60,963 nt of DNA, from IMG/VR virus record IMGVR_UViG_3300050004_000011, positions 1 through 60,963 of that record; one strand, written 5' to 3'. The notes under the pieces were generated by a model. It did not search any database. It saw only the letters and a list, made by a program, of their open reading frames with translations, and was not told the origin of the DNA. Position 1 is the stretch's first letter, and each line of letters starts with the position of its first letter. The DNA comes from a virus. Its lineage: Duplodnaviria > Caudoviricetes. Below, piece after piece: positions 2,793-32,632 of the stretch. The position numbers and the translations under genes were made by a program.

Positions 2793-4352
2793 TCACCGTC
2801 GGTTGGCGATCTTCGCCAGGTTCTCTCGGTACCGCCTCGATTTGTCCGCGAGGCGGTCCAGGGCCTGGGTGGTGGTGTCAACGTGATCGTCGTGGGTGAA
2901 CCGGGGGAACTTGATGTGCTCCTCCCTGACCACGTCGGCGCCGATGATGTACTCGATCTTGTCCACCTTGCGCGAGTCCCCGGGCGGGTACACCACCTGC
3001 CCTGACTCCCACTTCTCGGTGTGGACGTGGTAGCGCTCCTCCTTGGACCCCTGCGGCTCCACGCCCTTGATGCCGGGGAATTTTGATTGCATCTCCTCGA
3101 TGATCGCTGGACCGTTTGCCTTGAGCTCGATCAGCTTGATTTTTGCCCGGTGCCAGTGCGGGCGGGACTGCGCGAGCGTGAACTGCGCCTTGGACGCCAC
3201 GTAGTTCCAGTGCCCACCGACCCAGTCGATCAGACAGTACATCTCCGGGCGCCCCTCGAGCTTGCGCACGATGTAGTCATTTTGGGTGTTGGGCACGCGC
3301 GCCATGCGGTCAGCCAGGCTGCTGAAATACTCACGCACCTCGGCCAGGTCGCGGGTCACGCACCAGAGCTCGCCAGCCACCTTGCTGTGGCTCTCCTTGG
3401 TGCCCTTCGACGAGAAGTCCCACGACTGCACGAAGGTGCCCTTGGTGGGCGCGGAGATCCACTCGAGGCGCGTCCAGGACTCCTCCACGAAGCCGCCAGT
3501 GGCAGGCGTCGGGTCCTGCTGTAGTTGCGCCGAGGCCTCGTTCTTGAGCTTGATCTCCTGGGCGCGTACACGCTCCTCAGGGAACAGTTCCGGCCAGAGC
3601 AGTTCGCCCACTTCCTTGCGCGGGTCGCGAGCCCACATGCTGCGTTTCACCTGCCGTGCCGGCAGGACCAGGCTCTCGTAGCCCTCCGCGATGCACCGCC
3701 CCGCCAGGTCATTGCTGTGAACCCTTTGCATCACGACAACAATCCAGCGCTTAACGCGGGTCTGCAGGGTGCCATCAAACCATGCATCAACTTTCTTGAA
3801 TGCTGCCTCGCGCCCCAAAATTGCATCTTGAGGTTTGAGTGGATCGTCGATGATGATCCCGTCAACGTGACGTCCGGTTCCCTTCCCCTCTGGACTCGTA
3901 TTAAATCGAAATCCACCACGCGAATTTTTGAACTCGCGCAGAGCTGGCGCCTCCTTGCGCAGCTTCACGTACGGATAAGCAGTCTTGTATCGAGCATCGT
4001 TCAGGATGCTGATCATTTGCTCGCTTTGGTTGTTGAGCAGTGACTGGTCGAAGCTGCCCGCCAAAAAGCTGCAGCCCGGATCAAGTGTCCAGAACCATGC
4101 GGGCCAGAAGACGCCTACCATTTTGCTTTTGCTATGGCCGGGAGGAATGTTGATCACGAGGCGCTTGACTTCGCCCAACGTGACTGCGGTCAGATATTCG
4201 CAAATGGCCTCAAGATGCCAATTATCCAAAAAGTCTCGGGGGTCTGTGACGCCCCAGAACTGGCGGACAAATTCGTGTAAACCGCCCCGATCGATCAACT
4301 CCCGCATGATCAGGGCTTCTTCGGGGTCGAACTCGGTGTCGGCGTCAAGCAT
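2793..4352 (-). CDS. terL: Terminase large subunit
   Basis: INIPPGHSKS Walker A, IIIDDP Walker B, QSWDFS and HDDHVD nuclease motifs. Confidence 0.93.
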   Translation of the reverse strand: MLDADTEFDPEEALIMRELIDRGGLHEFVRQFWGVTDPRDFLDNWHLEAICEYLTAVTLGEVKRLVINIPPGHSKSKMVGVFWPAWFWTLDPGCSFLAGSFDQSLLNNQSEQMISILNDARYKTAYPYVKLRKEAPALREFKNSRGGFRFNTSPEGKGTGRHVDGIIIDDPLKPQDAILGREAAFKKVDAWFDGTLQTRVKRWIVVVMQRVHSNDLAGRCIAEGYESLVLPARQVKRSMWARDPRKEVGELLWPELFPEERVRAQEIKLKNEASAQLQQDPTPATGGFVEESWTRLEWISAPTKGTFVQSWDFSSKGTKESHSKVAGELWCVTRDLAEVREYFSSLADRMARVPNTQNDYIVRKLEGRPEMYCLIDWVGGHWNYVASKAQFTLAQSRPHWHRAKIKLIELKANGPAIIEEMQSKFPGIKGVEPQGSKEERYHVHTEKWESGQVVYPPGDSRKVDKIEYIIGADVVREEHIKFPRFTHDDHVDTTTQALDRLADKSRRYRENLAKIANRR

Positions 4353-4389
4353 GTGTAGTCATTTCAGGTAGGCCGGGATCCAGCGTCCA

Positions 4390-4569
4390 GTTGCAGATTC
4401 CAGGGCCTGCACGCCCTTTGGTTTGTGCCGCGGAGCACACCGCACTGACGTTCCTGCTCCCGTTGCAGATTCCAGGGCCTGCACGCCCTTTGGTTTGAGT
4501 GCATTGCTTGGCGCCGCGCAGGACGCCCGCACCGTTGCAGATTCCAGGGCCTGCACGCCCTTTGGTTTG
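4390..4569 (-). CRISPR. Mini CRISPR array: 3 identical 36-bp repeats, two 36-bp spacers
   Basis: Repeat (minus strand) CAAACCAAAGGGCGTGCAGGCCCTGGAATCTGCAAC at 4390-4425, 4462-4497, 4534-4569; unique spacers 4426-4461 and 4498-4533; 7 bp after the nuclease stop. Confidence 0.95.
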
Positions 4570-4576
4570 TCGTCAT

Positions 4577-5860
4577 TCACGCAGCCAAGGATATCGAGGC
4601 TTTGTGGAGGATGTTGCGAGCGGCGTTGATATCCGCGTCTTCGACGTGTCCGCAGCCAGGTGCTACGCACGTGTAGAGTTTGCCGTTCCTGGCTTCTTTC
4701 GCCACGTTGCCGCAATGCGAGCAGGTCTGGCTGGTATAGGCGCAATCCACCTCTCGCACGCGGTCACCAAGTCGCAGTTTGATGACATCCAGCGTCGCGT
4801 GCATGTAGGACAGCCCGCCTGTGTTGCTCTTGAAGTTCTTCGCAAGTTTCTCAACAGCAACGAACTCGTGGAGCTCAAGGCGCGGTAGTAATTCGGAGTG
4901 CAGCCAGTGTACCACGCGACGCTTGTCTGCTTGGTCGATGCGGGCAATCTTGCGGCGCGCACCAACGATCTGCTCAGGACAACGACTCAGGTCAGCCACC
5001 GACTGCAGGGCCGCTCGCGCGGTACGTGCCAGCGCAGTGCGGTCATTTTTCTTGGTGTAACCGTCACTGAGAGCCACCAGATCAGTCTGACCGACATCCA
5101 GCCCGACGCCAGGAGAAACAGGTGTAGTCAGTTTACGCGCAGGCACGATACACTTAACCGCGGCGTACCAACCGTCCGCACGCAAGTTGAGAGTCACACC
5201 CTGCACTTGCTTGCCTGGGATCGGTCGCCGAAGACGTCCCAGCAGAACCATCCCGTTCACCTTGATGCGCGCGTTGTACCAAGGCGCTCCTCGCCGCTCC
5301 CCGTAGAACCCTCCGGTTTCGACCAGAGGTGCGTTCCCCCACACCAGCGGGGCCGGGTCGTTTCTGCGCTTGTAGTTGGCGCGCTTGGTCCTCATCACAC
5401 GCTTTACCGTGTCGCGATACAACACCGCGTTGCCCAGACGACCGTAGATTGAGCGCAGGTCCTGGTACGAATCCTTGCGCCAATCTAGCTCCGGGCGACC
5501 TTTCACAGCGGCGTCGATCTGCTTGTAGTATTTCATCCACACACCCGACGCCAGCACGTCTTTGCAAGCACGCTTGTGCTCGCGCCAGAGCTCTTTGACC
5601 GCCAGTTTTTCTTCGTCAGTCGTTGGCGTCGGGGGGTTCGGAGGCTCTGGCATTACCGGTGCGTCGCCCACCAATTGCTCGCGTTTCGCACAGGCCTTGC
5701 GAGCGTTCTTGACGTCCTCACGCCCACGAACGATGTGGTTGGTGATGTTGCGCACCTCGTCTTGCAGGACGCGCAGGGTTGCGTGTGCTTCCGCGTCGGG
5801 GTAGAGACGGATAAGCTCGACACGTAGTTCGGTGTTCGGTGGTAGTATCAGTTTGTTCAT
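4577..5860 (-). CDS. Compact type V CRISPR effector (TnpB/Cas12f-like RuvC nuclease, 427 aa)
   Basis: N-terminal IRLYP; RuvC-I VGLDVG, RuvC-II VAVEKL, zinc finger TSQTCSHCG...CVAPGC, RuvC-III DADINAARNI; flanked by CRISPR repeats. Confidence 0.92.
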   Translation of the reverse strand: MNKLILPPNTELRVELIRLYPDAEAHATLRVLQDEVRNITNHIVRGREDVKNARKACAKREQLVGDAPVMPEPPNPPTPTTDEEKLAVKELWREHKRACKDVLASGVWMKYYKQIDAAVKGRPELDWRKDSYQDLRSIYGRLGNAVLYRDTVKRVMRTKRANYKRRNDPAPLVWGNAPLVETGGFYGERRGAPWYNARIKVNGMVLLGRLRRPIPGKQVQGVTLNLRADGWYAAVKCIVPARKLTTPVSPGVGLDVGQTDLVALSDGYTKKNDRTALARTARAALQSVADLSRCPEQIVGARRKIARIDQADKRRVVHWLHSELLPRLELHEFVAVEKLAKNFKSNTGGLSYMHATLDVIKLRLGDRVREVDCAYTSQTCSHCGNVAKEARNGKLYTCVAPGCGHVEDADINAARNILHKASISLAA

Positions 5861-5880
5861 GGTTCACACACCGTTGTCTA

Positions 5881-5916
5881 GTTGCAGGTTAGAGGGTCTG
5901 CACACCCTGTGAATCA
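5881..5916 (-). CRISPR. Solo degenerate repeat upstream of the effector, followed by a 20-nt guide-like segment (5861-5880)
   Basis: 26/36 identical to the array repeat; stem AGGGT/ACCCT replaces AGGGC/GCCCT; GTGCAG loop and CTGCAAC end invariant. Confidence 0.85.
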
Positions 5917-7611
5917 AAGCCACAGGCGCCCACCCCTCATCGTCAAAATCGCTCGCTTGCCATTATGGTAGACAACGGTGTGCGAAACGCTCCACGAGCT
6001 CGGACCGTGTGCGTATGGCAGCCGCCTGTTGCACACCCCCGATGAGAACACGCCGTCGCGGATGCACGCCTTGTGGCTGTGCCCCTTCACGATGCGTGTG
6101 GCCATGCGCGAGTACGCCGCGTCGCTGCCGCGCGAGCCATCAGGGCCTCGATCGCCGTGGAGTCCGCACTCGACGGGGTGGTCCGGCGGCCCCACCACGA
6201 AGGACTCATCGCCGCCCAGGAACCGGGCCAGGCTTCCGACGCCATGCCGCTGCATCGCCCACTCCAGGAAGTGCCACCCCTGCCCCTCGCGCAGCGCGCG
6301 GACGCGCGCCAGCTGGGCCTCGAGGTAGAGCTCGGCGTTGGGCAGGTCGGTCTTATAATCCGCCTCGTCCAGCCAGCGCTCTCCGTGAACGTCGTGGTTG
6401 CTCGCCACCACGACTGTCTGGCAGAAGTCACGGTGGGCTAGGTGCAGCAGCGTTGCGGTCACTTTGAGCTCGGCCTCCACGGTGTCGACATCAGCGCCAC
6501 CGATGTGCTTGGCGAAGCGCGCCGCGAAGGACTTCACCTCGTGGTGGCTCCGGTTGCGAAATGAGAGCGTGTCGTGCCAGAGTTGCACTCGGGGCCGCAG
6601 GGTGTCGATCACGCTGTCGGTTCGCCCCCAGTTCAGAGCGCGGACCGCAGGATCAATCTCGCTCGCGTGTATGTCTCCCCAAGATATGGCTTCGACGCGG
6701 TGTCCGCGGGTCACCTGCCCGTCCGCCACGCGGAACGTCAGATCGTGGAACGCGCCGTCGTCGTCCGCGTTCAATTGCCGACACCACCAATTCTCCGAGA
6801 CCAGGTCGACCTCAACAATGAGAGCACCGAACTGGTGATGGAACTCCGCTTTGATGCCCTCTTTTTTGGCGATGTAATTTCGCTGGGTGACGGCGCCGGT
6901 CGTGAAATTCAGCTTGGGCGGGCGCTCACCGATGACCGGCACGCTCTCGAGCGCGATCTTGGCGTGCGGGAAGATGCCCGACGCCGGTCCCGAGTACGAC
7001 TCCAATCCCGATAGTGGGCGGACCGCGGTCGGCAGGATGTTCATTTCTGCGCACCACAGCAGGTCCGGCGCCAAACGCCACTGGCAACTACCGTGCTTCT
7101 GGGGGTCGTCGCAGATGTACTGCTGGATGGCTGGATCGTACCAGAGCCCCTCGTGGTCGCTGCTGCTCGCACGCCCTGCCTTGGTGGCCTTCGCGCCGTA
7201 CGCAGATTTGTTGTAGCTGAACCTAGACACCATGATGCGAGCACCAGTGGCCTCCGCGTACGCTTCCAGGTTTGCCAGGAACTCCGCGTGCACTGGCGTG
7301 TTGTTCTGCGCGCTGGTCAAGATGTAACGGGCCACCTCCGGGCGGTGCGCGCCGGTGCACAGGTCGTTGGGTTGCGGTGCGGGGACGTGCCCGTGCACTA
7401 TCGGGCCGCTGTCGGGGGCCGGTTGCGCGGCGGCGCGGGCGCGGGCCTGCACGGAACGCAAGCGTGACTGAAGTTTGGTGCGCTTCCAGCCGAGCGCCTG
7501 CGCAGCGGTGTTCTGACTGCCGTGCTCCACCAGGGCCTCGATGGCGGTGCGCTCGGTAGTGCTCATGGGGAGATCGAGCAGGCTGGCGTACGGGTTGATG
7601 GGTGCGGTCAT
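5914..7611 (-). CDS. HTH plus metallophosphoesterase-fold protein (T5 A1-like nuclease)
   Basis: ILTSAQNNTPVH, WGDIH, SNHD, HGD, GHSH motifs; N-terminal HTH; start at MTAPINP. Confidence 0.7.
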   Translation of the reverse strand: MTAPINPYASLLDLPMSTTERTAIEALVEHGSQNTAAQALGWKRTKLQSRLRSVQARARAAAQPAPDSGPIVHGHVPAPQPNDLCTGAHRPEVARYILTSAQNNTPVHAEFLANLEAYAEATGARIMVSRFSYNKSAYGAKATKAGRASSSDHEGLWYDPAIQQYICDDPQKHGSCQWRLAPDLLWCAEMNILPTAVRPLSGLESYSGPASGIFPHAKIALESVPVIGERPPKLNFTTGAVTQRNYIAKKEGIKAEFHHQFGALIVEVDLVSENWWCRQLNADDDGAFHDLTFRVADGQVTRGHRVEAISWGDIHASEIDPAVRALNWGRTDSVIDTLRPRVQLWHDTLSFRNRSHHEVKSFAARFAKHIGGADVDTVEAELKVTATLLHLAHRDFCQTVVVASNHDVHGERWLDEADYKTDLPNAELYLEAQLARVRALREGQGWHFLEWAMQRHGVGSLARFLGGDESFVVGPPDHPVECGLHGDRGPDGSRGSDAAYSRMATRIVKGHSHKACIRDGVFSSGVCNRRLPYAHGPSSWSVSHTVVYHNGKRAILTMRGGRLWL

Positions 7612-7847
7612 TTTTGGGCGGTGTCCTGGGTGCGGAGGCGGTACAGGGCGCGCAGCGCGACACCCAACGAAATGAAGCTGAAGGCGAGCATGCCCGGCAG
7701 TCCTGAGTAGTAGGAGAGCAAGCCCCAGCCGACCTGGCTTGAGAGACACACCCACCAGCCCAACACGTAGCGCTGCTCGGCCAGCAGCCAGCGCGTGAGC
7801 ACAGACCAGACGCACATCACCCAACTACCGAGCTCGATGGCGGTCAC
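7608..7847 (-). CDS. Small multi-pass membrane protein
   Basis: Three hydrophobic segments; GTG start overlapping the upstream stop. Confidence 0.55.
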   Translation of the reverse strand: MTAIELGSWVMCVWSVLTRWLLAEQRYVLGWWVCLSSQVGWGLLSYYSGLPGMLAFSFISLGVALRALYRLRTQDTAQK

Positions 7848-8245
7848 GACTTGGCCGCCAGTCGCACGCGGGCCGCGGCGGCGTCTCGGGCGGATCGGCG
7901 CGTCATCAGATCCACCACCCCGGCGGGAGGCGGAACGGCAGGACGATCCAGCAAGAATGTTTCGCCGGTTACAGGATTTCCCAGGGATACTATCGAGCTC
8001 CAAGGAAGCTCACAGAAGTATGGTTGGCCTCCGAAAGACAGCATGCAGGCAATGCGCCGCACGTTCACGTGCAGATTGGACATCGGCACAGGAGTATGGA
8101 AACCGATCTCCAGGTACAGGCGTTCGTCGTCAAGGAACTCGTCTGGCACGCGCACGTCCACGTGACGCGGGTCTAGGCAGATCAAAACGTTGCCATGATT
8201 GAGCATGTTCAGAAAGAATTGCGTTGGGGGCTGCGGTGCGGTCAT
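7844..8245 (-). CDS. SspB-like ClpXP adaptor protein
   Basis: LDPRHVDVRVP...LSFGGQPYFCELPWSSI resembles the SspB fold signature. Confidence 0.65.
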   Translation of the reverse strand: MTAPQPPTQFFLNMLNHGNVLICLDPRHVDVRVPDEFLDDERLYLEIGFHTPVPMSNLHVNVRRIACMLSFGGQPYFCELPWSSIVSLGNPVTGETFLLDRPAVPPPAGVVDLMTRRSARDAAAARVRLAAKS

Positions 8246-8751
8246 TTGTTGGTGCCCTTGGCTTTGGCTTTGAGTGCTTGGTACATGCGTAGCTCTTCGA
8301 CGGTGAATTTGGACAGGTCCTCGCGGCCGCCGGCGCCGTCGGCACCCACGGTTTTGAGTTGGATCTCGCGCAGCAGGTGCACCGCGCCCACGATGTCCTT
8401 TAACGATGCAACGGCGTGTGGCTCGGTGCTGCACTGCTGGACCAGCTTGGTGGACTCGATCTCGGCGACGCGCACCAGGTTGTCCAGGATCTTGGCGGTG
8501 CTGGTGGCTTGGTCGGGCGCCAATTGCTGGGCCCTATCAAACGCCGACGCGCGCTGGGCCCACTCCCAGGCCTGGGCGGTGGCCTGCATGGCGGCGGGAG
8601 GGGCGCCACGACTGACACCCTTCTCGACCCAGTCGATGAACCCCCAATACTCGGCGTCGGTCTCGCCGGTGCGCTGCTCCCAGAGCTGCTCGAGGGCGAC
8701 GATCTTGTTGACAGAGCGCACGGTGCGCGAGAGAGAACCCCCGCGACTCAT
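8242..8751 (-). CDS. Putative terminase small subunit
   Basis: WEQRTGETDAEYWGF...WEWAQRASAFD pattern and C-terminal DLSKFTVEEL; lies between portal and terL. Confidence 0.55.
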   Translation of the reverse strand: MSRGGSLSRTVRSVNKIVALEQLWEQRTGETDAEYWGFIDWVEKGVSRGAPPAAMQATAQAWEWAQRASAFDRAQQLAPDQATSTAKILDNLVRVAEIESTKLVQQCSTEPHAVASLKDIVGAVHLLREIQLKTVGADGAGGREDLSKFTVEELRMYQALKAKAKGTNK

Positions 8752-10696: not shown

Positions 10697-10905
10697 AGAT
10701 CGAAGGCCTTGACGTAGTCGGCGGCGGACTGGAAGTTCTTGAACTTGCGGCAGTGCTTGCTGTGGCGCGGCAGGTAAACCCAGCCAGCGCTGCGCCCGCG
10801 CGCAGTGCAAAGAGACACCGTGGCTACGTAGTCGTCGTTGCGCCACAACTGCCAGCCTTTGCCGTCAGTCCAGATTGGGATCCATCCGTCTTTTGGTGCG
10901 GTCAT
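10693..10905 (-). CDS. Small hypothetical protein
   Basis: Coupled ORF between portal and head morphogenesis gene. Confidence 0.5.
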   Translation of the reverse strand: MTAPKDGWIPIWTDGKGWQLWRNDDYVATVSLCTARGRSAGWVYLPRHSKHCRKFKNFQSAADYVKAFDL

Positions 10906-12416
10906 TTTTCCTCTGCGCGCTGCTTCTGGGCAATCTTGGCGGCGCCCTGCTTGCCGGGGGCGCCCTGCGGCGGGACCTCTTCGGGCTCCCCTGCCCCCGA
11001 GACGTCGTCGCGGCTGTCCTCCGCATCAGCGCCAGACACCTCCACGAAGGTGCCAGCAGCGCGGGCCTCCGCAATCTGCTTGGCGGAGTAGCCCATGTCC
11101 CAGTAGATCTTGTCGGCGTTCGCGTGCGCTGTCCTGGTTTGGGCCTTTTCGTTGTCGGAGCTCTCCCACAGTGAAGGCCATTCCACTTCCACTTCCTTGC
11201 CGCCGTTGACCGCGGTGAGGAGCGTGCCCAGCTTGGGGCCCAGGTAGTATTTTTGGTAGTTCTGGCACGTGTTGTAGAACTGCGTCAGGTCCGCCTCTCC
11301 CTTGCTGTTGGCGTTCAGCCCGCTCGGACTCGAGGAGAAGAAAATACTGGCGGGCGTCTCGGCGCAGCCGGCCACGTTGGCCATGAGTTGCTGCATGATG
11401 GCGGGGATGTCCGTCATGCTCGCCTCGGTGCGCTCGAACTCCTCATCGTTGTCCTTGTCGAGGAACATCATCCGGTGCACGGAGCGGGTCTCCTGCAGCA
11501 CGCGCAGGCGGTCCTCGATCAGGTCCTTGGCCTCACTCGCGAGTCCCTCCACGAGGCCAGACAGTTTCATGACGCCGATGCTGGCGTCCTGCAGGATGTT
11601 GCTCACCGCTGACCACGCGAGGCCGTAGCGCCCGATGTCCTGGAGCACGGGCGTGAGCACACTGACGCCGAGCTCGGGCTGCGCGTGGCTGCCGGTCACG
11701 TCGAACACGTCCAGGCCGGTGTTGGGGACGCGCAGCGGTCGCCCGGAGAACCGAATCGATCGGGACGCATGAAAGATCTGCCCGACTCGCGGGTGCAGCG
11801 GCCCATAGGCGTTGGCGATCACCTGGTACACGGACGGCATGCCGAAGAGCGGCGAACGCGGATCCATGTCGCGCTTCAGGACGCGGAGCTCGTGCTGCGC
11901 GAAGAGATCGAAGAACGCGATACCGCCCTCGCGCTGCTCGTCAGTGAGTGGGGTGAACGGCATCCCTTTGTTGTAGCCGATCCACAGCACGCTCCCGCCG
12001 TGCGCGCGGCCGTCGAGCACCCCGCGCTCGAACACGCCCCGGGGGAAGCGCTCGTTGCGGTTCAATTGCGAGAACGTCTTGAGCAACTCACTGCTGGCCG
12101 GCGTGCCCGCGCCGTCGCCCTTGATACCGTACCCGCGCACCAGGGCCACGCTGGGCATCTTCTCGATGATGCGATCGGCAAGCCAGTCGTAGGTGTAGAG
12201 CTTGTCCACCGTCATCGGGGTGGGGATCTGCCCGGACCGGTACTGCAGCGCGGCCGTGGGGTCCAACCCGGGCATTCCCAACCCCGTCATGGGGTTCATC
12301 CAGCCGGACGTGGTGACAGACACCCCCGAGGGGCACAGCGCGGTGCTCGAGTCGGTGCGGGGGGCGGGCGCCGGGGGCGCCGCGTCGAGAAAACGGGACA
12401 GGTTGCGTGTGCGCAT
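10902..12416 (-). CDS. Portal protein (DUF1073-like)
   Basis: SGWMNPMTGLG, LYTYDWLADRIIE, DPRSPLFGMP, IFHASR, PSGLNA motifs; 504 aa. Confidence 0.85.
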   Translation of the reverse strand: MRTRNLSRFLDAAPPAPAPRTDSSTALCPSGVSVTTSGWMNPMTGLGMPGLDPTAALQYRSGQIPTPMTVDKLYTYDWLADRIIEKMPSVALVRGYGIKGDGAGTPASSELLKTFSQLNRNERFPRGVFERGVLDGRAHGGSVLWIGYNKGMPFTPLTDEQREGGIAFFDLFAQHELRVLKRDMDPRSPLFGMPSVYQVIANAYGPLHPRVGQIFHASRSIRFSGRPLRVPNTGLDVFDVTGSHAQPELGVSVLTPVLQDIGRYGLAWSAVSNILQDASIGVMKLSGLVEGLASEAKDLIEDRLRVLQETRSVHRMMFLDKDNDEEFERTEASMTDIPAIMQQLMANVAGCAETPASIFFSSSPSGLNANSKGEADLTQFYNTCQNYQKYYLGPKLGTLLTAVNGGKEVEVEWPSLWESSDNEKAQTRTAHANADKIYWDMGYSAKQIAEARAAGTFVEVSGADAEDSRDDVSGAGEPEEVPPQGAPGKQGAAKIAQKQRAEEK

Positions 12417-12475: not shown

Positions 12476-13027
12476 TCATTTCTTGTGGTCCTGCCAGGGC
12501 ACGTGGCCTACGCCCGGCACGAAGAATCCCCACCCGCGCCCGGAGAGCGGTCCGGCGAAAAACAGGGTCCAGACACCGCGCGCGCCGGGACCGGGGTGCA
12601 ATTGGGTGATCCGGTGGTACTTCGATGCCCGGATAAAATTGAACCAGCGCACGCGGCGGGTGCGGACGGAACGCCCAAACGGTGTGGCCCAGATACCGGG
12701 CGCCACCTGGTGGTGTGCCTGGTGGTCCAGCGGTGCGTGCGGGTCCACGCCCAGGATCTCCTCCGTGTACGAGCCCCAGAGCACTATCGAGAAGCTCCAC
12801 GCGAAGCTGTGATTGTGGTGCCCGTCGGTGTCGCCGGCCAGGAAGTGGTTAAGGTACACCCGCCACTCGTTGGAGCCGGACACGGCCTGCTCACGCAGAC
12901 TGTAGCGATCCATGTACGGCATGTTGCTGGGCCCGCCGGGCGTGGCGGGGCGCAGCAGGTGGCGCACCCACCCACACAGGCGAGTCAGACGCCGGGTGGT
13001 GCCGCTGTTGCCGGCGGGGGTGGTCAC
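12476..13027 (-). CDS. Cupin-like hypothetical protein
   Basis: HHNHSF..SIVLWGSYTE..YHRI..WTLFF. Confidence 0.5.
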   Translation of the reverse strand: MTTPAGNSGTTRRLTRLCGWVRHLLRPATPGGPSNMPYMDRYSLREQAVSGSNEWRVYLNHFLAGDTDGHHNHSFAWSFSIVLWGSYTEEILGVDPHAPLDHQAHHQVAPGIWATPFGRSVRTRRVRWFNFIRASKYHRITQLHPGPGARGVWTLFFAGPLSGRGWGFFVPGVGHVPWQDHKK

Positions 13028-14412
13028 GCCCCGCCCCCGGCGCCCTTGCTGGCTTTGGCGGCGCGGTTGGCCAACTCGCACACAGCCAGGAAAGCTAGCC
13101 GCTCGTCATCGTTCTCTGGCGAGTCGCCGATGTAGTCTCGCCAGTACACCAGCGTCTCCTCGCGAATGTCCTCTGTCGCCTCCAGCACCGCGCGCTCTTC
13201 GGGGGTGCACGTGTTGATCAGGTCACTCAGCGGGGTGCGGGCGTGTGCAGGCAGCCCTAACTCGGACTCCAGCTCCTTCACGCGGGCGGCGAGTTGGTTG
13301 CGCTCGGCTTCGAGCTTTCGGTAATTCAACAGCGGAGCTGCCCGCTCTGTCTCATTTGAGAGGTCCGCTAGTGCATCAATGGCCTCGGAAGCCGTCACGA
13401 AGCCGTCGCAGGACGCGCGGCGCAGAAGCCACTGCAATCGTTGGCGGATCCTCTCCAGTAGCTGGCTGTCCCGCTCCGCCGCATCAGCTCGGGCGTTGGC
13501 GGCCTCTAGGCGCGCCTTGTACTCGTCGCACCACTTCTCCAGCTCGGCAATCTTGGTCTTGGCGGCGGCGAGTTGTTCGATCAGTTCCGCGACCCGTGCG
13601 TTGTCGGCTCGGGCCACGTTCGCCCAGTCGTTGCCCCATGTCTCCAGCTCCGCAATCCGGGCGTTGGCGCGGTTTCGCTCGGCCGTTAGCGCGGCTCTCT
13701 CGGCGTCGCACTTGTCCACGCACTTGAGCTTCAGCTCCGCAATCCGGGCGTTGGCGGCGGCGAGGTCGGCACGGTCTTGTCGCCAGTGAATAAGCACGTC
13801 ATGTGGTTCCAAGTCATCAACCATCGCCTGGTAGTCGGCGAGACGGGATTCCAGCGAGACGTTCTCTGCGCGAACCTTCGCCAGTTCACTGTCAGCCATG
13901 CGCCTCAGGATGTCGTTGCCTTGCTCGGGAGTTACCGCCTGCCCCTTCGGCGCCTCGGGCTGGCAACGCTCGCACGGGGTCTCCGGTGAGCAGTCCGCGG
14001 ACCCTGCTGGCAAGGGCGCCTCGGGCTGGTCGGCGAGGACGGCGTCAAGCGCAGCCAGCCATGACGGAAGTGGCGAGTCGCGGTACAGAGCATCTGGCAA
14101 CCGCCCCAACTTATTGCGCAGGCTGTTTAGCACGGCCCGCACGCGCTTCAGGGTCGCGTTGGCGGCGGCGATGCCAGCGCGAATGTCATTGGGCGAGGCC
14201 TCGAATGGGTCCAATCTCAGCGTTTGACACGCGGCGGCGTGGCTGCGCCGCAGCTGTTCGTACTCAGCTTCGTCTGGGAATGTCTCCTCAACTGACGCAA
14301 CCAACTGCCGCGCTCTGGTGCTGGTGAGTGCTGCGTCGTAGTGGTCGTGACCTTGCGCGGCCAGTTCCAGCAGGCGGGCCCAGGTCAGTGGTACGGGGTA
14401 TCCGGCGGTCAT
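13024..14412 (-). CDS. Long coiled-coil protein
   Basis: Repeated ANARIAEL heptads. Confidence 0.65.
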   Translation of the reverse strand: MTAGYPVPLTWARLLELAAQGHDHYDAALTSTRARQLVASVEETFPDEAEYEQLRRSHAAACQTLRLDPFEASPNDIRAGIAAANATLKRVRAVLNSLRNKLGRLPDALYRDSPLPSWLAALDAVLADQPEAPLPAGSADCSPETPCERCQPEAPKGQAVTPEQGNDILRRMADSELAKVRAENVSLESRLADYQAMVDDLEPHDVLIHWRQDRADLAAANARIAELKLKCVDKCDAERAALTAERNRANARIAELETWGNDWANVARADNARVAELIEQLAAAKTKIAELEKWCDEYKARLEAANARADAAERDSQLLERIRQRLQWLLRRASCDGFVTASEAIDALADLSNETERAAPLLNYRKLEAERNQLAARVKELESELGLPAHARTPLSDLINTCTPEERAVLEATEDIREETLVYWRDYIGDSPENDDERLAFLAVCELANRAAKASKGAGGGA

Positions 14413-16037: not shown

Positions 16038-16570
16038 ATTGCGCCCGGCAGGCCCGCGGCGCGCAGCACGTCCGCCGCGCCGTCCACGAAGTGGAAGGGC
16101 CGATTGGCGCCCATGCGTAGGTGCTCCTCCACCAGGCGGTCCACCGCGCGCGCCCCTGCCTCGTCTTCGTACCGCCCCGCCTGCACGAACGGCTTCGTGC
16201 GCTTCAGCAGGCAGTTCACGTCCACGATGCCGGCCTCCTGCTTGCGCTTGCGCGTGGCGTTGCACAGATCCCGCAGCGTGCACCGGGTCGCGTGGTAGTG
16301 CCGCTCGTACACAGCCCCCAGGCCCAGCGGGCTGTCGGTCACGATGTAGTCCACCTTGCCGTACAGCGAGCTCTCCCGACGCAACTGCTTGGCGAAGATG
16401 TAGACGTCGTCCCACGGACCAATGGAAACCCCGCGCCACGCCCACTGCTTGACGTACTCCGTCACCAGCTCCACGCTCAGTCCGGCGAGCTTCATGCGCG
16501 CGAACACGTCGGCAGCGGTGGTGCTCTTGCCGCACCCCGAGCCAGCCCAGAGATTGATCACTGTGGTCAC
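16034..16570 (-). CDS. P-loop kinase/ATPase (AAA_28/NadR-like)
   Basis: INLWAGSGCGKSTT; VTDSPL. Confidence 0.75.
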   Translation of the reverse strand: MTTVINLWAGSGCGKSTTAADVFARMKLAGLSVELVTEYVKQWAWRGVSIGPWDDVYIFAKQLRRESSLYGKVDYIVTDSPLGLGAVYERHYHATRCTLRDLCNATRKRKQEAGIVDVNCLLKRTKPFVQAGRYEDEAGARAVDRLVEEHLRMGANRPFHFVDGAADVLRAAGLPGAI

Positions 16571-16965
16571 AGTGCACCCCCGTCCACCACGCGGCGGCCG
16601 TGCGTCAGGGTGGTGTGGTCAGTTTTGCCGGGCAGGATTTCGCGCCACGTCTTCGCCCACGGGCCGCGGAACGACAGCACCCACGTGCGGCCGAGGGAGA
16701 CCACCTTGTGTGTGGTATCGCGCGAGGTGAAGACGGGCCACCACGACGGGAAGTGAATGTCCACCCAACCGTTTTCATGGATCTCGTCCAGACTACCACT
16801 CAGCACCCAACTCACCGCGTTGAATGCGTGCGAGTGATAGGCGTCACGGCTGCCGTTCTCGAAGCGCAGCAGCACGATAGTGAATGCCCGCTTCCACTCG
16901 ATCAGGTTGTACGCCCACACCGTGGACTCGTGGCCTCCGTCCTTGCACAGATTGAACAGTTTCAT
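16567..16965 (-). CDS. Cupin-like hypothetical protein
   Basis: YHSHAF..VLSGSLDE..THKV. Confidence 0.55.
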   Translation of the reverse strand: MKLFNLCKDGGHESTVWAYNLIEWKRAFTIVLLRFENGSRDAYHSHAFNAVSWVLSGSLDEIHENGWVDIHFPSWWPVFTSRDTTHKVVSLGRTWVLSFRGPWAKTWREILPGKTDHTTLTHGRRVVDGGAL

Positions 16966-17812: not shown

Positions 17813-18780
17813 GCTGCTTGCCTCTTCTGTTGTTGTAGGTAGTCGTTGCACTCGTCAGTGCCCCAGATCAGTAGTTGTCCGTCCCGCACCACGCGCTCTG
17901 CGCTCTTCGACCACGTGGCACTTGCCGATGCGGGGGCGCGCAGTTGCACGTCGGGCACCTTGCGGGCGCCATAGGTCTCTATCACGTGGGTGAGTTCTTC
18001 GGCGGCTTCTGTGACCCGATCGATCAGGCACTCGAGCAGCCAGGCGTCGTAGGCCTGCATCACCATGCGGCAGCCGTACAATGCCGACCCCGGGACGGCG
18101 TAGCAGCGCCGCTGGAGCTCGAACGTCACCTCACCTGCCACTAGTGCCCCGAGGCCCTGGAACGGGCTGTTGCACGCCGCGCAGTAGGTGGCCTTGCCCC
18201 GGCGCACCACGCTTCCGATCGACGGATGTCCAATGATGACGTGGTACATCCCATCCTGGCCGCGCGTCTCTCGCATGCGATCCAGGTAGTCCTGGTCGTT
18301 GGGGTTGGCCTTGCGCCAGAAGTTGCACAGGTGCACCGCCGCCGCTTCGCTCTCCTCCCTCGAGGGGCGGGGGTTGTCGTCGGTGGAGCCCAGCTTGATG
18401 CCGTAACTGGTGCGCGCGAACCCAACTAACGTGCGATCCGCCATGCCGCCGGGCTTGCCGAAGCCGGGGACCTTGCACATGTCCCGCTTCTTCTTCATGA
18501 GCTTGTCGGCGGGGCACTTCACGTGCGTGACCGGGTCCTCGCCCTTCGCCAGGCGGAAGAACTCGTTGTACCCCATGCCGGCGTACGCGCTGCCGGTCAG
18601 GCAGTGGAGGTCGATGCCGCTGTTGATCTGCTTGGCCTTGCGCCAGTCGTTGTTCAGCCAGATCTCCACCTGCGCGAGGGTCACCATCTCGAGGGCCTCC
18701 ACGTCGGCCTCGATGAATGCGTATCCGGTGCGGGGCACGAAGCACTCGCGCACGCTGAAGTCCTGCATGACTAACGGCAT
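17809..18780 (-). CDS. Family A DNA polymerase, C-terminal palm/fingers part
   Basis: VRECFVPR, motif A FIEADVEALE, DLH, motif B RDMCKVPGFG, NSPFQG, motif C QAYDAW; start uncertain (18780 or up to 18960). Confidence 0.85.
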   Translation of the reverse strand: MPLVMQDFSVRECFVPRTGYAFIEADVEALEMVTLAQVEIWLNNDWRKAKQINSGIDLHCLTGSAYAGMGYNEFFRLAKGEDPVTHVKCPADKLMKKKRDMCKVPGFGKPGGMADRTLVGFARTSYGIKLGSTDDNPRPSREESEAAAVHLCNFWRKANPNDQDYLDRMRETRGQDGMYHVIIGHPSIGSVVRRGKATYCAACNSPFQGLGALVAGEVTFELQRRCYAVPGSALYGCRMVMQAYDAWLLECLIDRVTEAAEELTHVIETYGARKVPDVQLRAPASASATWSKSAERVVRDGQLLIWGTDECNDYLQQQKRQAA

Positions 18781-18973
18781 GAGTTCACCGAAGCGATCCA
18801 ACGGGCGCGAGGTTGCGTGAGAGGTCGACACCCGCACTGGTCGGGTTGACGGCACGGAGGTGTGCCTGCGTGCCTGCGTTCTTGCCAAGACATGCAGCGC
18901 CCGGGCAGCGCGCCAGGTCCGCTGCAATTGTGTTTCTTTGCTGGCGTGCACAGACGCCACTTGCTGCGATCGA

Positions 18974-19480
18974 TCATTTGCACTCCGGTCGCTCCCACTC
19001 GCAGCTCATATCGCCGCACAACTCCCAGATGTCCGCCAACGAGATGCAGTGACTGGCGTCGGGGTTGCCCTTGGGCCCCATCACGCCGGCGTGCTTGTGG
19101 TGGTCGGCACCCAGCAGGTGCCCCCACTCGTGCGTTGCCGTGCGCTCGATCTCCTCATCGGAGCGCGACATGTCGATCTCGATAGTGGTGCCGTCCCAGC
19201 ACCCCGTCACCGACAGGAGGTCCCCGCACTCGAACGTGCCCCAGCGAGCGCGGACCTGCGGCATGGGTGCGGTCAGATTGGTGGCGCCCTGCCAGCGCGC
19301 GGCACCGCGCTGCACGGCCTCGCGGGCGGTGATGCCGCAGCCCGACAACAAACACCCGAGCACTATCGAGAGAGGGATCAGCAGCAGGATCCACCTACCG
19401 CCATCCTGGTGAGGGCAGTCACAGTTAGTGTCGATCTCGTGCTCGGTAAAACAGTCGTTGCATTGTGCGGTCAGTTTCAT
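18974..19480 (-). CDS. Lipoprotein with HExxH metallopeptidase motif, between the polymerase halves
   Basis: Hydrophobic stretch plus LLSGC lipobox; THEWGHLLGADH...VM. Confidence 0.65.
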   Translation of the reverse strand: MKLTAQCNDCFTEHEIDTNCDCPHQDGGRWILLLIPLSIVLGCLLSGCGITAREAVQRGAARWQGATNLTAPMPQVRARWGTFECGDLLSVTGCWDGTTIEIDMSRSDEEIERTATHEWGHLLGADHHKHAGVMGPKGNPDASHCISLADIWELCGDMSCEWERPECK

Positions 19481-20988
19481 TGGTTCACCTGGGGCTCGCA
19501 GTTCGGGCAGGTCAGCACCGTCAACTTCTTGGCCACCTTCGCGGCGGTGTCGGGGTCCACCGAGAGTTCGTAGTCGCACGTCGGGCACGCAGCGAAATAG
19601 AAGCTGGTGCGCCGAAAGTTCAGGCAGTTCGGATCCGAGGACGACTGCCGCAGGTTGTTCGTCACGCCGATGCGCGTGTGCACCACCCCGCGCGCGAAGA
19701 TGAGCATGTCCTTGCTCATCAGTGCCACGTATTCGTTATATTGGCCCCACGCTTCGAGCTCGTGGTTCTGGGAGTCCTGCAGCACGTGCCGGCTCGTGGC
19801 CACCTGCCCGCCGCCGGACACCTTGCCCGTCTTCTTGTCCTTCTTCGGCTCCGTCAGCGGGGGCCTGCCCTCGTACGCCAGCGTGACCGCGGCCTTCAGG
19901 GCGGTGGTGTTCTTGCTCCACGCCGCCGTGCCGTCCGCGTTCAGGCGCTGCAACTTACAGCCGGGGCACGCGCGGTGTTTGGCGGCGCGGCGATCCCACG
20001 CAGCCACCTTCTTGGCAGTCGCCTTCGGACCCGCGGGCCTTGCCTCCATTTGCACGGGGCACACCCGGGGCGCCTTGTGCCCGGCCGCTAGTGCTGCGGC
20101 GTGGTCGCGCACTCGTTGCTGCTGCTTGTCCCACGTGGCGGCCTTCTTGGGGTCCTCGGGTCTCGTCGAGTCGGGGCGCACTCGACCGCTGGCGATGGCG
20201 GGCTTCAGGAAGCCGTTCACCTGCGCTGCGTCCTGCAGGCGCCGGAGCGCGCTCTTGGCGGCTACGGCCAGGTCACTGACGGCCGCGGGGTTCACCTTCA
20301 GGCCGTACGTGCGCCACAGGTGGTGACCCAGGTACGTGCGAACTGTCTGGCCCAGGTCCTCGAGGCGCACCAGCGGCGCCCGGCCGTTGACGGGAGTGCA
20401 CCCGCGCTCGATCATGCGGGCTGCTAGTGGGAGCATGATCTGGCCGTCGTAGTCGGCGTAAGGGAACCAGGGGTCGGGGATGCTCTCCGCGCCGTACCAC
20501 AATCCAAAGCTGGTCCTGACGTCCACCGTCGCGCCAGTGAAGGGGCACGTGGCCTCCGTGTGCTTGTCGGGGGGCGGAAGTCCGTACTGCAGACACACCT
20601 TGTCGAGCCCCAGCGGGCCACCGATGTCCCCGCGCGCGATCTGGATCATCCGCTGCAGGTACATGGTGTCGAGGACCCGGCACTCGAGGAGTGCGGTCCA
20701 GATGAGCTCTCGCAACTCGGGGTACCACTCCAGGAAGCAGCCGATGTCGAACGGGCCGTTGTGAAACCAGATCTGGCTGCGCTGCCGATCGAACATGTGG
20801 AACAGCCCATCGCGCACCCGCTTCGTGACCAGCACCTCGTGGCTGCCGCCCGTGTCCCCGAACTGCAGGCACACCGTGGGCGGGGCCTGTAGTGCGCGGT
20901 CGCCGATCTTGAAGGACTCGCTGTCACCCCCAAGCGCATCGCGCGGCAGTAGCGCCATGGCGGACGGGAGTGCGGTGAGGATGCTCAT
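19477..20988 (-). CDS. Family A DNA polymerase, N-terminal 3'-5' exonuclease/thumb part with C-terminal zinc ribbon
   Basis: DSES, FHNGPFD, LDTM, YADYD exonuclease motifs; RQSSSDPNCLN; CPTC...CPNC. Confidence 0.82.
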   Translation of the reverse strand: MSILTALPSAMALLPRDALGGDSESFKIGDRALQAPPTVCLQFGDTGGSHEVLVTKRVRDGLFHMFDRQRSQIWFHNGPFDIGCFLEWYPELRELIWTALLECRVLDTMYLQRMIQIARGDIGGPLGLDKVCLQYGLPPPDKHTEATCPFTGATVDVRTSFGLWYGAESIPDPWFPYADYDGQIMLPLAARMIERGCTPVNGRAPLVRLEDLGQTVRTYLGHHLWRTYGLKVNPAAVSDLAVAAKSALRRLQDAAQVNGFLKPAIASGRVRPDSTRPEDPKKAATWDKQQQRVRDHAAALAAGHKAPRVCPVQMEARPAGPKATAKKVAAWDRRAAKHRACPGCKLQRLNADGTAAWSKNTTALKAAVTLAYEGRPPLTEPKKDKKTGKVSGGGQVATSRHVLQDSQNHELEAWGQYNEYVALMSKDMLIFARGVVHTRIGVTNNLRQSSSDPNCLNFRRTSFYFAACPTCDYELSVDPDTAAKVAKKLTVLTCPNCEPQVNQ

Positions 20989-29722: not shown

Positions 29723-30312
29723 AGAATCCTTACGTCAAATAGTCCGGGGTCAACGCTCCCCGGGTCGGTGGTGTCGTCCAGGTCAATGCCCGTTGATTCG
29801 TAGTCGTAGTCTCCGTCATCGATGTGACTGATGAACACATGCATCCGCACGCCCAACGACCTGGTCCTCGGCAGGAGGAAGATCAGCGCCTCAATCTCTG
29901 CTTCGGTGAACGCCTCGTGCGGCAACACTGCCATCGTGGCGGGTGAGTAATGGTGCACCTGAATCTCAGGTGTACTACCGGTCGCGATGTGGATGACGTT
30001 GATCAGGTCATCCGTCAGAGTGCGCGACTTGTTGGCCGCGATCTTAGCGCGGATGACAGCTCGGTAGATCTCATCATCGGCCCAGAAACGCGGCTGGCCT
30101 ACGATGCGTCCCAGCACGTTCAGTCGCGCCGTGTCGGCGTTGTCGATGTGGTGGATCTCGAGCACTTCCCACGCGGCGTCCTCGAGCTCTTGCACCCTGC
30201 GCGTCATTGCGAGCAGCAGGCTGGCAATGCGCGGACGCCCCCAGAAAGGGCCCACGAGTTTCACGAGCGCTGCGTGGAAGTGCTCGTTGCCGGTGATGGC
30301 GGTGAGTGCCAT
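29719..30312 (-). CDS. Baseplate wedge protein (DUF2612-like)
   Basis: IDNADTARLNVLGRIVG..DDEIYR..I.AKI. Confidence 0.75.
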   Translation of the reverse strand: MALTAITGNEHFHAALVKLVGPFWGRPRIASLLLAMTRRVQELEDAAWEVLEIHHIDNADTARLNVLGRIVGQPRFWADDEIYRAVIRAKIAANKSRTLTDDLINVIHIATGSTPEIQVHHYSPATMAVLPHEAFTEAEIEALIFLLPRTRSLGVRMHVFISHIDDGDYDYESTGIDLDDTTDPGSVDPGLFDVRIL

Positions 30313-30800
30313 CAGCGCGGCTCCGCCAGCATGGCGCGGAAGCGGTTCATGTCCACCAGCTTGCCGGGGCAGGTCTTCTTCGGGTCAGGGGCACCGAACA
30401 GCACCACCTCGCGATGGCCAATGAAATGCGCCCAGGGAATGCCGAAACGCTTCTGCAACGCCCAGCACAACTCGAACAGACTGTCGTACTGCGCGAGCGT
30501 GAAGTCGCGGATGTCCCCGTCCCCGGCCAGTCCGATCCCGGTGCTGTTGGTGTTGAAGCCCTTAGCGTGCGAGCCCACCAGTTCCAGTGGGCGACCGAGC
30601 TCCACGAGCCCGTTCATGCGGATCCAGAAGTGGTATCCGATGTCATTCCAGCCGTTCCCGGTGCGGTGCCACGCGCGGATCGCCGCCGCGCTAGTGTCGT
30701 TGTTCACGCCGTCGCCCTCGGTGTGGATGACACCGAACGTGATCGTGCGGACACCCGCGCCGCGCCGAACGGCGTCAAGAACTTCAGCCGGAAGACTCAT
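30312..30800 (-). CDS. N-acetylmuramoyl-L-alanine amidase (endolysin)
   Basis: VIHT, GWNDIGYH, GSHAKGFN, GHRE, KTCPG. Confidence 0.9.
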   Translation of the reverse strand: MSLPAEVLDAVRRGAGVRTITFGVIHTEGDGVNNDTSAAAIRAWHRTGNGWNDIGYHFWIRMNGLVELGRPLELVGSHAKGFNTNSTGIGLAGDGDIRDFTLAQYDSLFELCWALQKRFGIPWAHFIGHREVVLFGAPDPKKTCPGKLVDMNRFRAMLAEPR

Positions 30801-31041
30801 CGGGCGAGCTCCCCCCGGACGGCGGCAGCGATTTCCCGGAGCCAGCCCGCGGTCGCGCGCGGGCAACTACCGACAGACCCAACTCTAGTGACGCCTGTGT
30901 CAGTTCCCTGATGTCGTCCTTGTGCTCTTCGTGAAGACGATCGAGCTGCTTGCGCAGGCTGTTTGTCTGCTTCCACAGGACTGTCACCACTCCTGCCAGA
31001 GTTGAGATCGCGCCGAGTAGTGTTCCGTGCCATGTATCCAA
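30784..31041 (-). CDS. Small single-TM protein (possible holin/antiholin)
   Basis: N-terminal TM plus coiled coil, just upstream of the amidase. Confidence 0.45.
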   Translation of the reverse strand: MDTWHGTLLGAISTLAGVVTVLWKQTNSLRKQLDRLHEEHKDDIRELTQASLELGLSVVARARPRAGSGKSLPPSGGSSPDESSG

Positions 31042-31459: not shown

Positions 31460-32632
31460 TTAGGATGCGTCTCCAGTCACGACGATGTCTGACGCATCGA
31501 AGGTCGCGATCTCGTCCGAGTCGATTGAGATGTTGGCGGTGCCGCTCGGGCTTGCCGCGATGCCGGTCTGCACGAAAGTGACGTCGTCCACGCCGTCCAC
31601 AGCGAACACGGCCGATAGGATCTTGTAGTAGATGACGTCGTCGCCCACGCCCAGAGTGGCAACAGCCTCGAGGATGGCGTTCTGAACGTCCTCAGCGGCC
31701 ACGCCAACGGCAGACACCACTTCGACGTCCACGAAGATGGGAACCGCTGTGGCGCGTTCGAACGCGACGTTGGTCGTGGTGCCGTCGGCCTTCGTCGCCG
31801 TGCCGCTCTCGCCGCCAAGGGCTGGAATACCTGCCGGGCGCGTGTCGTGAATGGCCTGCGCGATCTCGTCGTCATCGGCTGCACCGGGGTCACCGTCCCA
31901 CACCACCACGCGGAAGCTGTGCGGCGACAGCGCGCCCACCGTCGCGTCAGTGGTGTTCTCCTCCACCAGCACCTGCTCGACGCCGTCCACCTGCAGCACG
32001 TCGGCGCGCATGGCGTCCAGGGTACCGCTGCCGGCGCGCGCCAGGCTCGCCTCGCGCTCCGCGCGCAGGTCTTCGATGTCCTGCACGTCACTGCCGGGCG
32101 TGGCATCCGCGGCGTTCGTGACGCTGTTCCAGCCCGCCACGCTACCCGCGATGATCGTCAGCGTGCCGGCGGCCGCGCTGAACTCGCTGCCCGCGCTCTC
32201 TGCCTCGAACACCGCCGAGTAGTTGCCTGCCGTGGTGCTGACGACGGCGTCGCGATTCACCCAGCGGTTGGCGGGCTCGTCCACCACGTGCGCGACCAGG
32301 TCGCCGGCGGCGTACGTCTCGCTGGCGTCCAGGTTCACGGTACACGTGCAGAGACCCTTACTCTCCCCGTCGCGCGTGACGCCCGTCAGTAGGCTCAGCG
32401 CAACCAGGCGGGCGTCCGTGGCGTTGTCGGGGTCGAAGCCATTGACGGCCTCCTCGAGGACCTCCCAGGCCTGCGCCAGGTGGTCCGCGAAGATGCGCAC
32501 GATGTTGCCGATCGCCGTCGACTCCGACACGTCGAGCTGTGCCGAAATGGTCCCGCGCAAATCGGTGGCGATGTCGGCGGCGATCTCCTCCTGGAGAGCT
32601 CGCTCGAAGCCTTCGGCTGTCAGGCCGCTCAC
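31460..32632 (-). CDS. Baseplate J-like protein
   Basis: GLTAEGF, FDPDNA, GWNSVTN, GTLDAMRA, PHSF, PAGI. Confidence 0.85.
   Translation of the reverse strand: MSGLTAEGFERALQEEIAADIATDLRGTISAQLDVSESTAIGNIVRIFADHLAQAWEVLEEAVNGFDPDNATDARLVALSLLTGVTRDGESKGLCTCTVNLDASETYAAGDLVAHVVDEPANRWVNRDAVVSTTAGNYSAVFEAESAGSEFSAAAGTLTIIAGSVAGWNSVTNAADATPGSDVQDIEDLRAEREASLARAGSGTLDAMRADVLQVDGVEQVLVEENTTDATVGALSPHSFRVVVWDGDPGAADDDEIAQAIHDTRPAGIPALGGESGTATKADGTTTNVAFERATAVPIFVDVEVVSAVGVAAEDVQNAILEAVATLGVGDDVIYYKILSAVFAVDGVDDVTFVQTGIAASPSGTANISIDSDEIATFDASDIVVTGDAS

Follow-up and report, generated by a model that had tools for sequence, protein, structure and literature searches.

Where does the 36-nucleotide (nt) sequence at positions 4426-4461 of the phage genome IMGVR_UViG_3300050004_000011 come from, and against what would it direct a nuclease? 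This IMG/VR record, called the window in the following, was analysed over its entire length of 60,963 base pairs (bp; 63% guanine plus cytosine, GC) and is rated 100% complete by CheckV; judging from PHROG and Pfam scans, it represents a temperate, myovirus-like phage from soil. The sequence lies between identical repeats in a very short CRISPR array, next to the gene of a small, predicted RNA-guided nuclease. We propose that the locus amounts to a minimal, self-contained CRISPR module of type V for interference in a temperate soil myovirus, and that its first spacer was most likely derived from the gene of a baseplate-associated protein (DUF2612) of a different, moderately related phage. To the joint claim that the system works and that spacer 1 stems from the DUF2612 gene of a rival phage we assign a probability of about 0.6. 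The array and the adjoining gene are arranged as follows:

4390-4425, minus strand: CRISPR repeat 1, an exact 36-nt copy and the last of the three when read along the effector gene
4426-4461, minus strand: spacer 1, 36 nt; the predicted guide of the CRISPR RNA (crRNA) is the reverse complement of the plus strand
4462-4497, minus strand: CRISPR repeat 2, an exact 36-nt copy
4498-4533, minus strand: spacer 2, 36 nt
4534-4569, minus strand: CRISPR repeat 3, an exact 36-nt copy and the repeat that follows the effector gene first, 7 nt beyond its TGA stop codon
4577-5860, minus strand: nuclease of the TnpB/Cas12f fold, 427 amino acids (aa), the predicted RNA-guided effector (Pfam, NCBIfam, fold match)

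It is the three identical 36-nt repeats that define 4426-4461 as a 36-nt spacer, and adjacent identical repeats with unique spacers of similar length are what characterizes the array of a type V CRISPR-Cas system. Read in the orientation of the effector gene, the repeat has the 3' end CTGCAAC, which we liken to the GCAAC in which the guide RNAs of Un1Cas12f1 presumably end ahead of the guide. Contigs of three soil sequencing runs display the array together with the effector gene over 4300-6000; one run contains the phage at a share of 0.95 and two more contain small parts of it, gaps in the coverage by soil-run contigs carrying no evidential weight. On the plus strand the repeats score as a terminator-like hairpin followed by TTGGTTTG (4402-4417, 4474-4489 and 4546-4561); these hairpins could keep antisense transcription out of the array, or they may be a coincidence.

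The effector contains the Cas12f1-like TNB domain of Pfam (PF07282; 6.5e-15, 55.5 bits against a cut-off of 26.3), and the NCBIfam model guided_TnpB covers it over its full length, with 85.8 bits under a cut-off of 100. Further models remain far below their curated cut-offs: IS200_TnpB gives 48.6 bits (cut-off 425) and CRISPR_Cas12f2 gives 32.1 bits (cut-off 450), the latter over the C-terminal 55 residues only. TnpA (Y1 transposase) was not found in the phage genome, in a search whose control was detected in 7 of 14 genomes. Although the protein resembles both Cas12f (V-F) and the TnpB of IS200/IS605 elements in size, fold, RuvC triad and TNB zinc ribbon, it scores below the curated models of either family; the TnpB of such elements would in addition call for a transposon context, given by TnpA or defined element ends.

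Homologues of the effector were found in metagenomes (26 proteins of 425-447 aa, 50-69% identity), while relatives in viral contigs reach only ~27-32% identity and none was found in genome contigs. The RuvC triad (D255, E337, D410) and four zinc-ribbon cysteines are invariant across 27 homologues, and the triad aligns with GVDLG, VEDL and DRDENAALNI of a TnpB-like chain in the PDB; a single effector with a RuvC-like D-E-D triad and a TNB zinc ribbon is in keeping with a type V system. With a profile of the family, ISDra2 TnpB and a designed nuclease resembling TnpB come out as the nearest in sequence among solved structures (1e-13 to 1e-14). The effector stands closer in sequence to ISDra2 TnpB (2.7e-13) than to Cas12m (2.4e-8) or Cas12p (3.1e-6). 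Cas12f chains match by sequence at the C-terminus only, and likewise the match to LaTranC (PDB) is confined to the C-terminal zinc-ribbon region (E 4.7e-8; fold E 4e-11). An AlphaFold model of the effector (predicted local distance difference test, pLDDT, 86; predicted template modelling score, pTM, 0.68) matches AsCas12f, CnCas12f1, the TnpB of ISDra2 and ISFba1, Cas12p and LaTranC with E-values of 1e-14 to 1e-11 at 12-18% identity, the best matches being AsCas12f, CnCas12f1 and ISDra2 TnpB at ~1e-14; comparison of this predicted structure assigns the fold of the effector and no subtype. In third-codon-position GC the effector gene (0.68) lies below 11 of 13 other genes compared (0.76-0.88; the gene at 57361-58410 has 0.75), a hint that the cassette was acquired later than the rest of the genome.

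Is the association of gene and array particular to this phage? Among six distant IMG/VR relatives of the effector, five (L165, L167, L168, L169 and L172) carry an array 0-90 nt 3' of the gene on the same strand, and in the sixth (L171) no array directly follows the gene. Hence the layout is kept with different spacers, as befits a type V system. The repeat of L165 has the core GCGTGCAGGCC and the CTGCAAC end in common with the repeat of the window, relative to which its hairpin contains a compensatory pair. These same-strand arrays, together with the likeness of the L165 repeat, suggest that reading of the array follows the direction of the gene, repeat first and then guide.

A further repeat-like sequence lies on the other side of the effector gene:

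5881-5916, minus strand: degenerate fourth repeat (pseudo-repeat), with 73% identity to the repeat (40-nt register)
5863-5986, minus strand: structured element, in which 18-nt inverted arms (5863-5880 and 5969-5986) enclose the pseudo-repeat

The pseudo-repeat begins at the stop codon of the gene upstream and reaches to within 20 nt of the effector ATG, and its hairpin is kept by a compensatory change. The inverted arms are complementary at 17 of 18 positions (94%), and a region of 135 nt folds with z-scores against shuffles of -4.4 on the minus and -3.2 on the plus strand. Only with the antisense of the pseudo-repeat does the repeat RNA pair significantly (none of 200 shuffles was as good); the sense strand of the locus yielded no significant partner of the repeat (41 of 200 shuffles were equally good) and no anti-repeat, which may be another difference from the Cas12f and TnpB families. 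Upstream of the gene in four distant relatives (L165, L167, L168 and L172) the pseudo-repeat is absent. The element could be an antisense trans-activating crRNA (tracrRNA), an autoregulatory guide or the relic of a transposon end; repeat-like standalone sequences ahead of cas12a are common and thought to be regulatory, according to the part of that report used here (bioRxiv 10.1101/2023.03.03.530964).

Does the array guide anything at all? It might instead be an inherited or decaying relic that came with a TnpB-like cassette, with spacers left from the conflicts of a former carrier or representing duplicated transposon-end sequence. Such a fate would agree with the presence of two spacers only and the absence of adaptation genes (see below), with the later acquisition suggested by the low third-position GC of the effector gene (0.68 vs 0.76-0.88), and with a repeat-like copy on both sides of the gene, as at the ends of transposons; moreover, type V arrays are thought to derive from guide-RNA segments of TnpB in those parts of two reports on which we draw (bioRxiv 10.64898/2026.03.27.714800, 10.64898/2026.09.14.751636). 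We nevertheless deem a relic improbable, given that the three repeats are 100% identical, that none of the 27 homologues deviates in the catalytic residues or the zinc-ribbon cysteines, that five of six distant relatives retain the layout with different spacers, and that TnpA is absent.

Cas1, Cas2 and Cas4 were not found in the phage genome, although the positive controls were detected in each search, and new spacers would therefore have to originate elsewhere, possibly through adaptation enzymes of the host or by recombination with other arrays. The initial annotation had held that acquisition must use machinery not encoded here. The absence of such machinery is borne out in a genome rated complete, and recourse to outside machinery is plausible. 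The effector adjoining the array had gone unmentioned in that annotation; given this effector, adaptation alone, and not interference, would depend on outside help.

The proposed source of spacer 1 has a counterpart in the phage itself:

29719-30312, minus strand: DUF2612 baseplate-associated gene, 197 aa (Pfam and PHROG)
29869-29904, minus strand: site homologous to spacer 1, encoding EAEIEALIFLLP, 22/36 bases identical in codon register

This gene matches DUF2612 of Pfam (PF11041) with 38 bits (cut-off 23.5) as well as baseplate and structural families of PHROG (1e-17 to 1e-5), and its neighbours encode an amidase, a baseplate wedge and a baseplate hub. As had been noticed in the initial annotation, spacer 1 encodes on the plus strand a peptide that resembles this baseplate protein: the frame from 4427 reads AAEHTALTFLLP (frame 1 of 4426-4461 reads CRGAHRTDVPAP), which is identical to the phage's own EAEIEALIFLLP at 8 of 12 residues. 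The last codon of this peptide uses G4462 of the next repeat, CCN encoding proline regardless. A recount returned the 21/36 identical bases given there, and 22/36 when the two sites are compared in codon register (4427-4462 vs 29869-29904); in the latter 8 of the 14 mismatches occupy third codon positions, in line with the many such mismatches first remarked upon. Four of the eight shared residues use different codons, as expected of a diverged homologue. The GC at the three codon positions of spacer 1 (0.75, 0.50 and 0.83) is compatible with the proposed frame in a stretch too short for this to count, and spacer 2 exhibits no phase.

Could so short a likeness have arisen by chance? The CRISPR system would then be real and spacer 1 would stem from an unrelated gene of a phage, plasmid, integrative element or host, an origin that we consider possible and yet rather unlikely. 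Several counts speak in its favour and thus weigh against a baseplate origin. Spacer 1 matches 18 other sites of the window at 21/36 bases or more; in six-frame searches of the window, 168 of 600 composition-matched random 36-mers (28%) and 79 of 300 shuffles of spacer 1 attain 8/12 residues; another frame of the spacer (PRSTPH*RSCSR) likewise finds a meaningless 8/12 match; and when all six frames of the phage genome are scored with BLOSUM62, meaningless matches elsewhere rank above that to DUF2612 (p ~0.5). However, when the comparison is made with real proteins (68 likely proteins, 18,280 aa), just 74 of 3000 random 36-mers attain 8/12, i.e. 2.5% per spacer or ~5% for two.

Comparison with the protein family sharpens this picture. 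Among 5.8 billion proteins, 48 homologues of the DUF2612 protein were found, and the best 150 matches of a profile search of 1.84 billion representatives, to which the listing extends, included 147 new ones. In the block that aligns to EAEIEALIFLLP, the homologue sequences AAQHTALEYLLP, ASVKTALTFLLP and ANELTALRFLLP each agree with the spacer peptide at 9/12 residues and AAEMSALEYLLP at 8/12. A subfamily profile for which we took the 32 closest homologues, and left out the protein of the phage itself as well as its 88% twin, scores the peptide of spacer 1 with 23.0-23.6 bits, peaking exactly at the homologous block (own peptide: 24.9 bits). This score is equalled by 4 of 20,000 random 36-mers in six frames, and 23.6 bits are attained by 11 of 332,211 control peptides, which were stop-free and taken from four real phage genomes without DUF2612 and from the reversed window. 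Furthermore, at the four positions where the spacer peptide departs from the own protein, its residues (A, H, T and T) suit the family better than random ones do (p = 0.022). When chance matches at 8/12 to the DUF2612 protein were simulated, no more than 5.7% of them attained the observed score.

Two routes lead from these figures to the odds of a chance likeness. The product of 0.05 (two spacers at 8/12) and 0.057 is ~0.003, while 2^-23.6 over ~18,000-20,000 positions of the proteome, six frames and two spacers amounts to ~0.02-0.04, which would place the probability of a chance likeness between spacer 1 and DUF2612, after correction for multiple tests, at about 0.003-0.04. The corrected upper bound of ~0.03-0.04 counts against a DUF2612 origin, and so does the result with a broad profile of 193 family members, under which the peptide obtains 12.9 bits, a score equalled by 846 of the 332,211 controls and not significant. 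Since the score falls with the broad profile, the support comes from the close subfamily, to which the motif xALxFLLP is confined. The likeness thus appears to be moderately beyond chance only once the homologous family is considered.

It had also been predicted that a search for the protospacer would lead to a DUF2612-like gene. This expectation failed: no such match, exact or with synonymous codons, was obtained from viral, metagenome or genome contigs, and the searches together weigh against the proposed source. Specifically, exact spacer 1 and its last 20 bases, predicted to be nearest to the protospacer-adjacent motif (PAM), had 0 matches each in viral contigs, and the codon-degenerate pattern of AAEHTALTFLLP (spacer bases 2-36 as written) had 0 matches in contigs of all three kinds. 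With blastn, neither spacer 1 nor the whole array hit anything significant among phage and plasmid records, the best E-values (0.1-5) belonging to pieces of 17-49 nt in unrelated genes throughout. The three soil runs yielded no contig that matches a spacer alone, and a protein search around TALTFLLP of homologue P0029 returned only the query, with 2 candidates scored. Spacer 2 matches nothing in viral contigs, phage and plasmid records or the loci of homologues, and this want of a counterpart is another point on the same side.

These negatives stand beside a sparse record of relatives. Close relatives of the phage are scarce in the DNA collections searched, the best DUF2612 locus showing 64% protein identity. 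A search of viral contigs with the single DUF2612 protein found nothing, and alignment-based searches recovered 80 viral and 80 metagenome loci; the 64% is the best metagenome identity, and viral loci covering most of the protein have at most 43%, a few short partial matches reaching 51%. Within the 160 loci the best base match of spacer 1 is 24/36, equal to the maximum of the reversed-spacer control and hence a further point against. One of the three best matches at 24/36 in 1.7 Mb of locus DNA is the homologous site of a homologue (L085), and another homologue (L005) reaches 24/36 at the homologous site in codon register. A scan of the loci with peptides from all frames of both spacers found nothing at 9/12 or above.

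Is there any precedent for spacers that resemble genes of their own carrier? In the distant relative L167, spacer 1 (7329-7363) matches the tail of that phage's own effector gene at 30/35 bases, with a second site at 26/35, and spacer 3 (7473-7509) matches a neighbouring gene at 28/37; altogether, of the 10 spacers tested there, 3 resemble genes of the genome that carries them (p <=0.02). Such arrays do, therefore, carry spacers resembling diverged copies of carrier genes, and those of L167 look as if aimed at sibling phages. The fit to the subfamily profile, the family-like residues and this precedent favour the view, taken in the initial annotation, that spacer 1 was acquired from a related competing phage; the absence of the predicted DUF2612 match and the 12.9 bits of the broad profile detract from it. 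On the strength of the peptide comparison, spacer 1 was probably derived from the DUF2612 gene of a rival phage. Duplicated spacers were observed in two of the relatives: the array of L167, which has 15 repeats, contains short irregular units at 7797-8290 with spacers of 19, 24 and 26 nt, one 24-nt spacer occurring twice, and in L168 one 36-nt spacer stands twice in tandem. Such features suggest that units were copied within the array and not newly acquired.

The resemblance to a gene of the carrier raises yet another possibility, namely that spacer 1 regulates the phage's own DUF2612 gene by partial pairing, with binding and no cutting. Of the 20 bases with a predicted place closest to the PAM, 15 match at the own site, the mismatches falling at guide positions 3, 6, 12, 13 and 18; the 5' flank of the site is TGGTCCTC. 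Positions 3 and 6 of the guide would lie in the seed, as in Cas12 enzymes, and the mismatches there speak against such pairing, as does the fact that 18 other sites in the window equal or exceed the 21/36 identity. Partly complementary crRNA-like guides do regulate genes in other CRISPR types (bioRxiv 10.1101/2023.03.03.530964). Regulatory guides are not known to act on a distant structural gene, their targets being promoters of cas or cargo genes. Altogether we judge self-regulation to be very improbable.

If spacer 1 is indeed directed against a rival's DUF2612 gene, the mechanism that we infer, from the direction of transcription to the ecological role, would run as follows. The array would most likely be transcribed together with the effector gene and the transcript cut into crRNAs, each with a handle that derives from the repeat and ends in CUGCAAC, and with the guide behind it. 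By analogy with the family, the guides would steer the nuclease to cut matching DNA beside a 5' PAM. The guide of spacer 1 would be able to pair with the sense strand of a DUF2612 gene whose protein we estimate to be ~55-70% identical to the phage's own, and a cell or lysogen harbouring the phage would destroy the superinfecting rival. The own allele would escape owing to its 14-15 differences in 36 bases, 5 of them within the 20 bases predicted nearest to the PAM. Concerning the PAM, a lysine follows LLP in 28 of 34 subfamily members, in place of the arginine of the phage's own protein. A source gene with this lysine would show CTTN or TTTN 5' on the strand of the guide, where the own site has CCTC, and a flank of this kind would suit a T-rich 5' PAM. 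This idea is tentative, and the flanks of the near-self matches in L167 differ from the CTTN/TTTN motif.

How does the locus relate to known systems? The accounts cited in this and the next two paragraphs are used in part, and the comparisons extend to those parts. The archaeal portogloboviruses SPV1 and SPV2 carry mini-arrays of 1-2 spacers against related viruses, the carrier's own locus being mutated (Medvedeva et al. 2019, PMC6858448). The present phage is similar in having 1-2 spacers in a viral genome devoid of adaptation genes, in the proposed exclusion of related viruses, and, provided that the proposed source is right, in an orthologous site of the carrier that has diverged, here by 14-15 of 36 bases. 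By contrast, the SPV arrays, as described there, come with no cas gene and borrow the effector of the host, whereas this phage has a nuclease of its own; and SPV spacers match siblings at or near 100%, whereas here no protospacer was found and the own allele is 58-61% identical in bases. If our proposal is true, the locus would be a bacterial-virus counterpart of the archaeal SPV1/SPV2, in which a temperate phage brings along both the guide and a TnpB-sized nuclease, with the target being the rival version of a structural gene of which the phage has its own copy, and superinfection exclusion would be linked to the divergence of a baseplate gene.

Phage-borne type V systems provide a second comparison. 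Cas12r of the Thermus Lalka phages (564 aa) has spacers mainly against integrative elements, with spacer gain ascribed to host enzymes (bioRxiv 10.64898/2026.04.20.719267); Cas12p, the 'hacker', is a phage type V effector of 500-700 aa (bioRxiv 10.1101/2025.01.20.633832); and MvCas12m is a Cas12m of a myxophage with 610 aa (bioRxiv 10.64898/2026.09.14.751636). All three share with the present system a single RuvC effector and a short array in a phage, without cas1, cas2 and cas4 as far as described, and a proposed role against rival elements; their effectors are larger than the 427 aa found here. That the Lalka spacers target mostly integrative elements and not sibling phages is a point for an unrelated source of spacer 1.

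Closest in size are the TranC proteins, TnpB-sized nucleases with arrays of 3-20 repeats of 32-38 bp and, in the account given, no nearby adaptation genes; one of them, the ultra-compact CauTranC9, comes from a Caudoviricetes genome and its native spacers target phages (bioRxiv 10.64898/2026.03.27.714800). Our effector, too, is a TnpB-sized nuclease with a short array, and CauTranC9 is likewise phage-borne, the comparison resting on description for these and on sequence and fold for LaTranC; the present lineage may already be listed among members of the TranC clade.

Phage mini-arrays, type V phage systems without adaptation genes and intermediates between TnpB and Cas12 are thus already known, and what is gained is an added example. 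Both by sequence and by fold the effector family takes a place between TnpB and Cas12f, and so it bears on the origin of CRISPR effectors from transposon nucleases, and a family as small as this (425-447 aa) may interest those who seek compact genome editors. More tentatively, and with doubt prevailing, the effector and its 26 metagenomic homologues might constitute a phage-borne group of CRISPR effectors, unclassified and derived from TnpB, that ranks with the smallest associated with an array. The array would be fused to the gene end, and the pseudo-repeat element ahead of the gene, an RNA with an 18-bp stem, would act as antisense tracrRNA or as a guide by which the effector regulates its own expression; the system would then amount to a complete, self-regulated weapon of phage against phage, aimed at alleles of structural genes such as DUF2612.

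The remaining part of the genome has the following landmarks, assigned by PHROG and Pfam scans:

570-1856: integrase
2793-4352: large terminase
10902-12416: portal
30312-30866: amidase
31460-34788: baseplate hub and wedge genes
36023-37792: tape measure
40089-41423: tail sheath
43303-44280: major head protein

The same scans identified a DNA polymerase, helicases and a primase, while an Rfam scan and a tRNA scan of the window found no family and no tRNA. Two GIY-YIG homing endonucleases are encoded, one directly after the tape-measure gene (37738-38409) and the other at 49376-50080, where it adjoins a DNA methyltransferase-like gene (48068-48673). Finally, two genes in the replication/early region (12476-13081 and 16567-16965) both match phrog_4786, annotated as cysteine dioxygenase, an unusual cargo.

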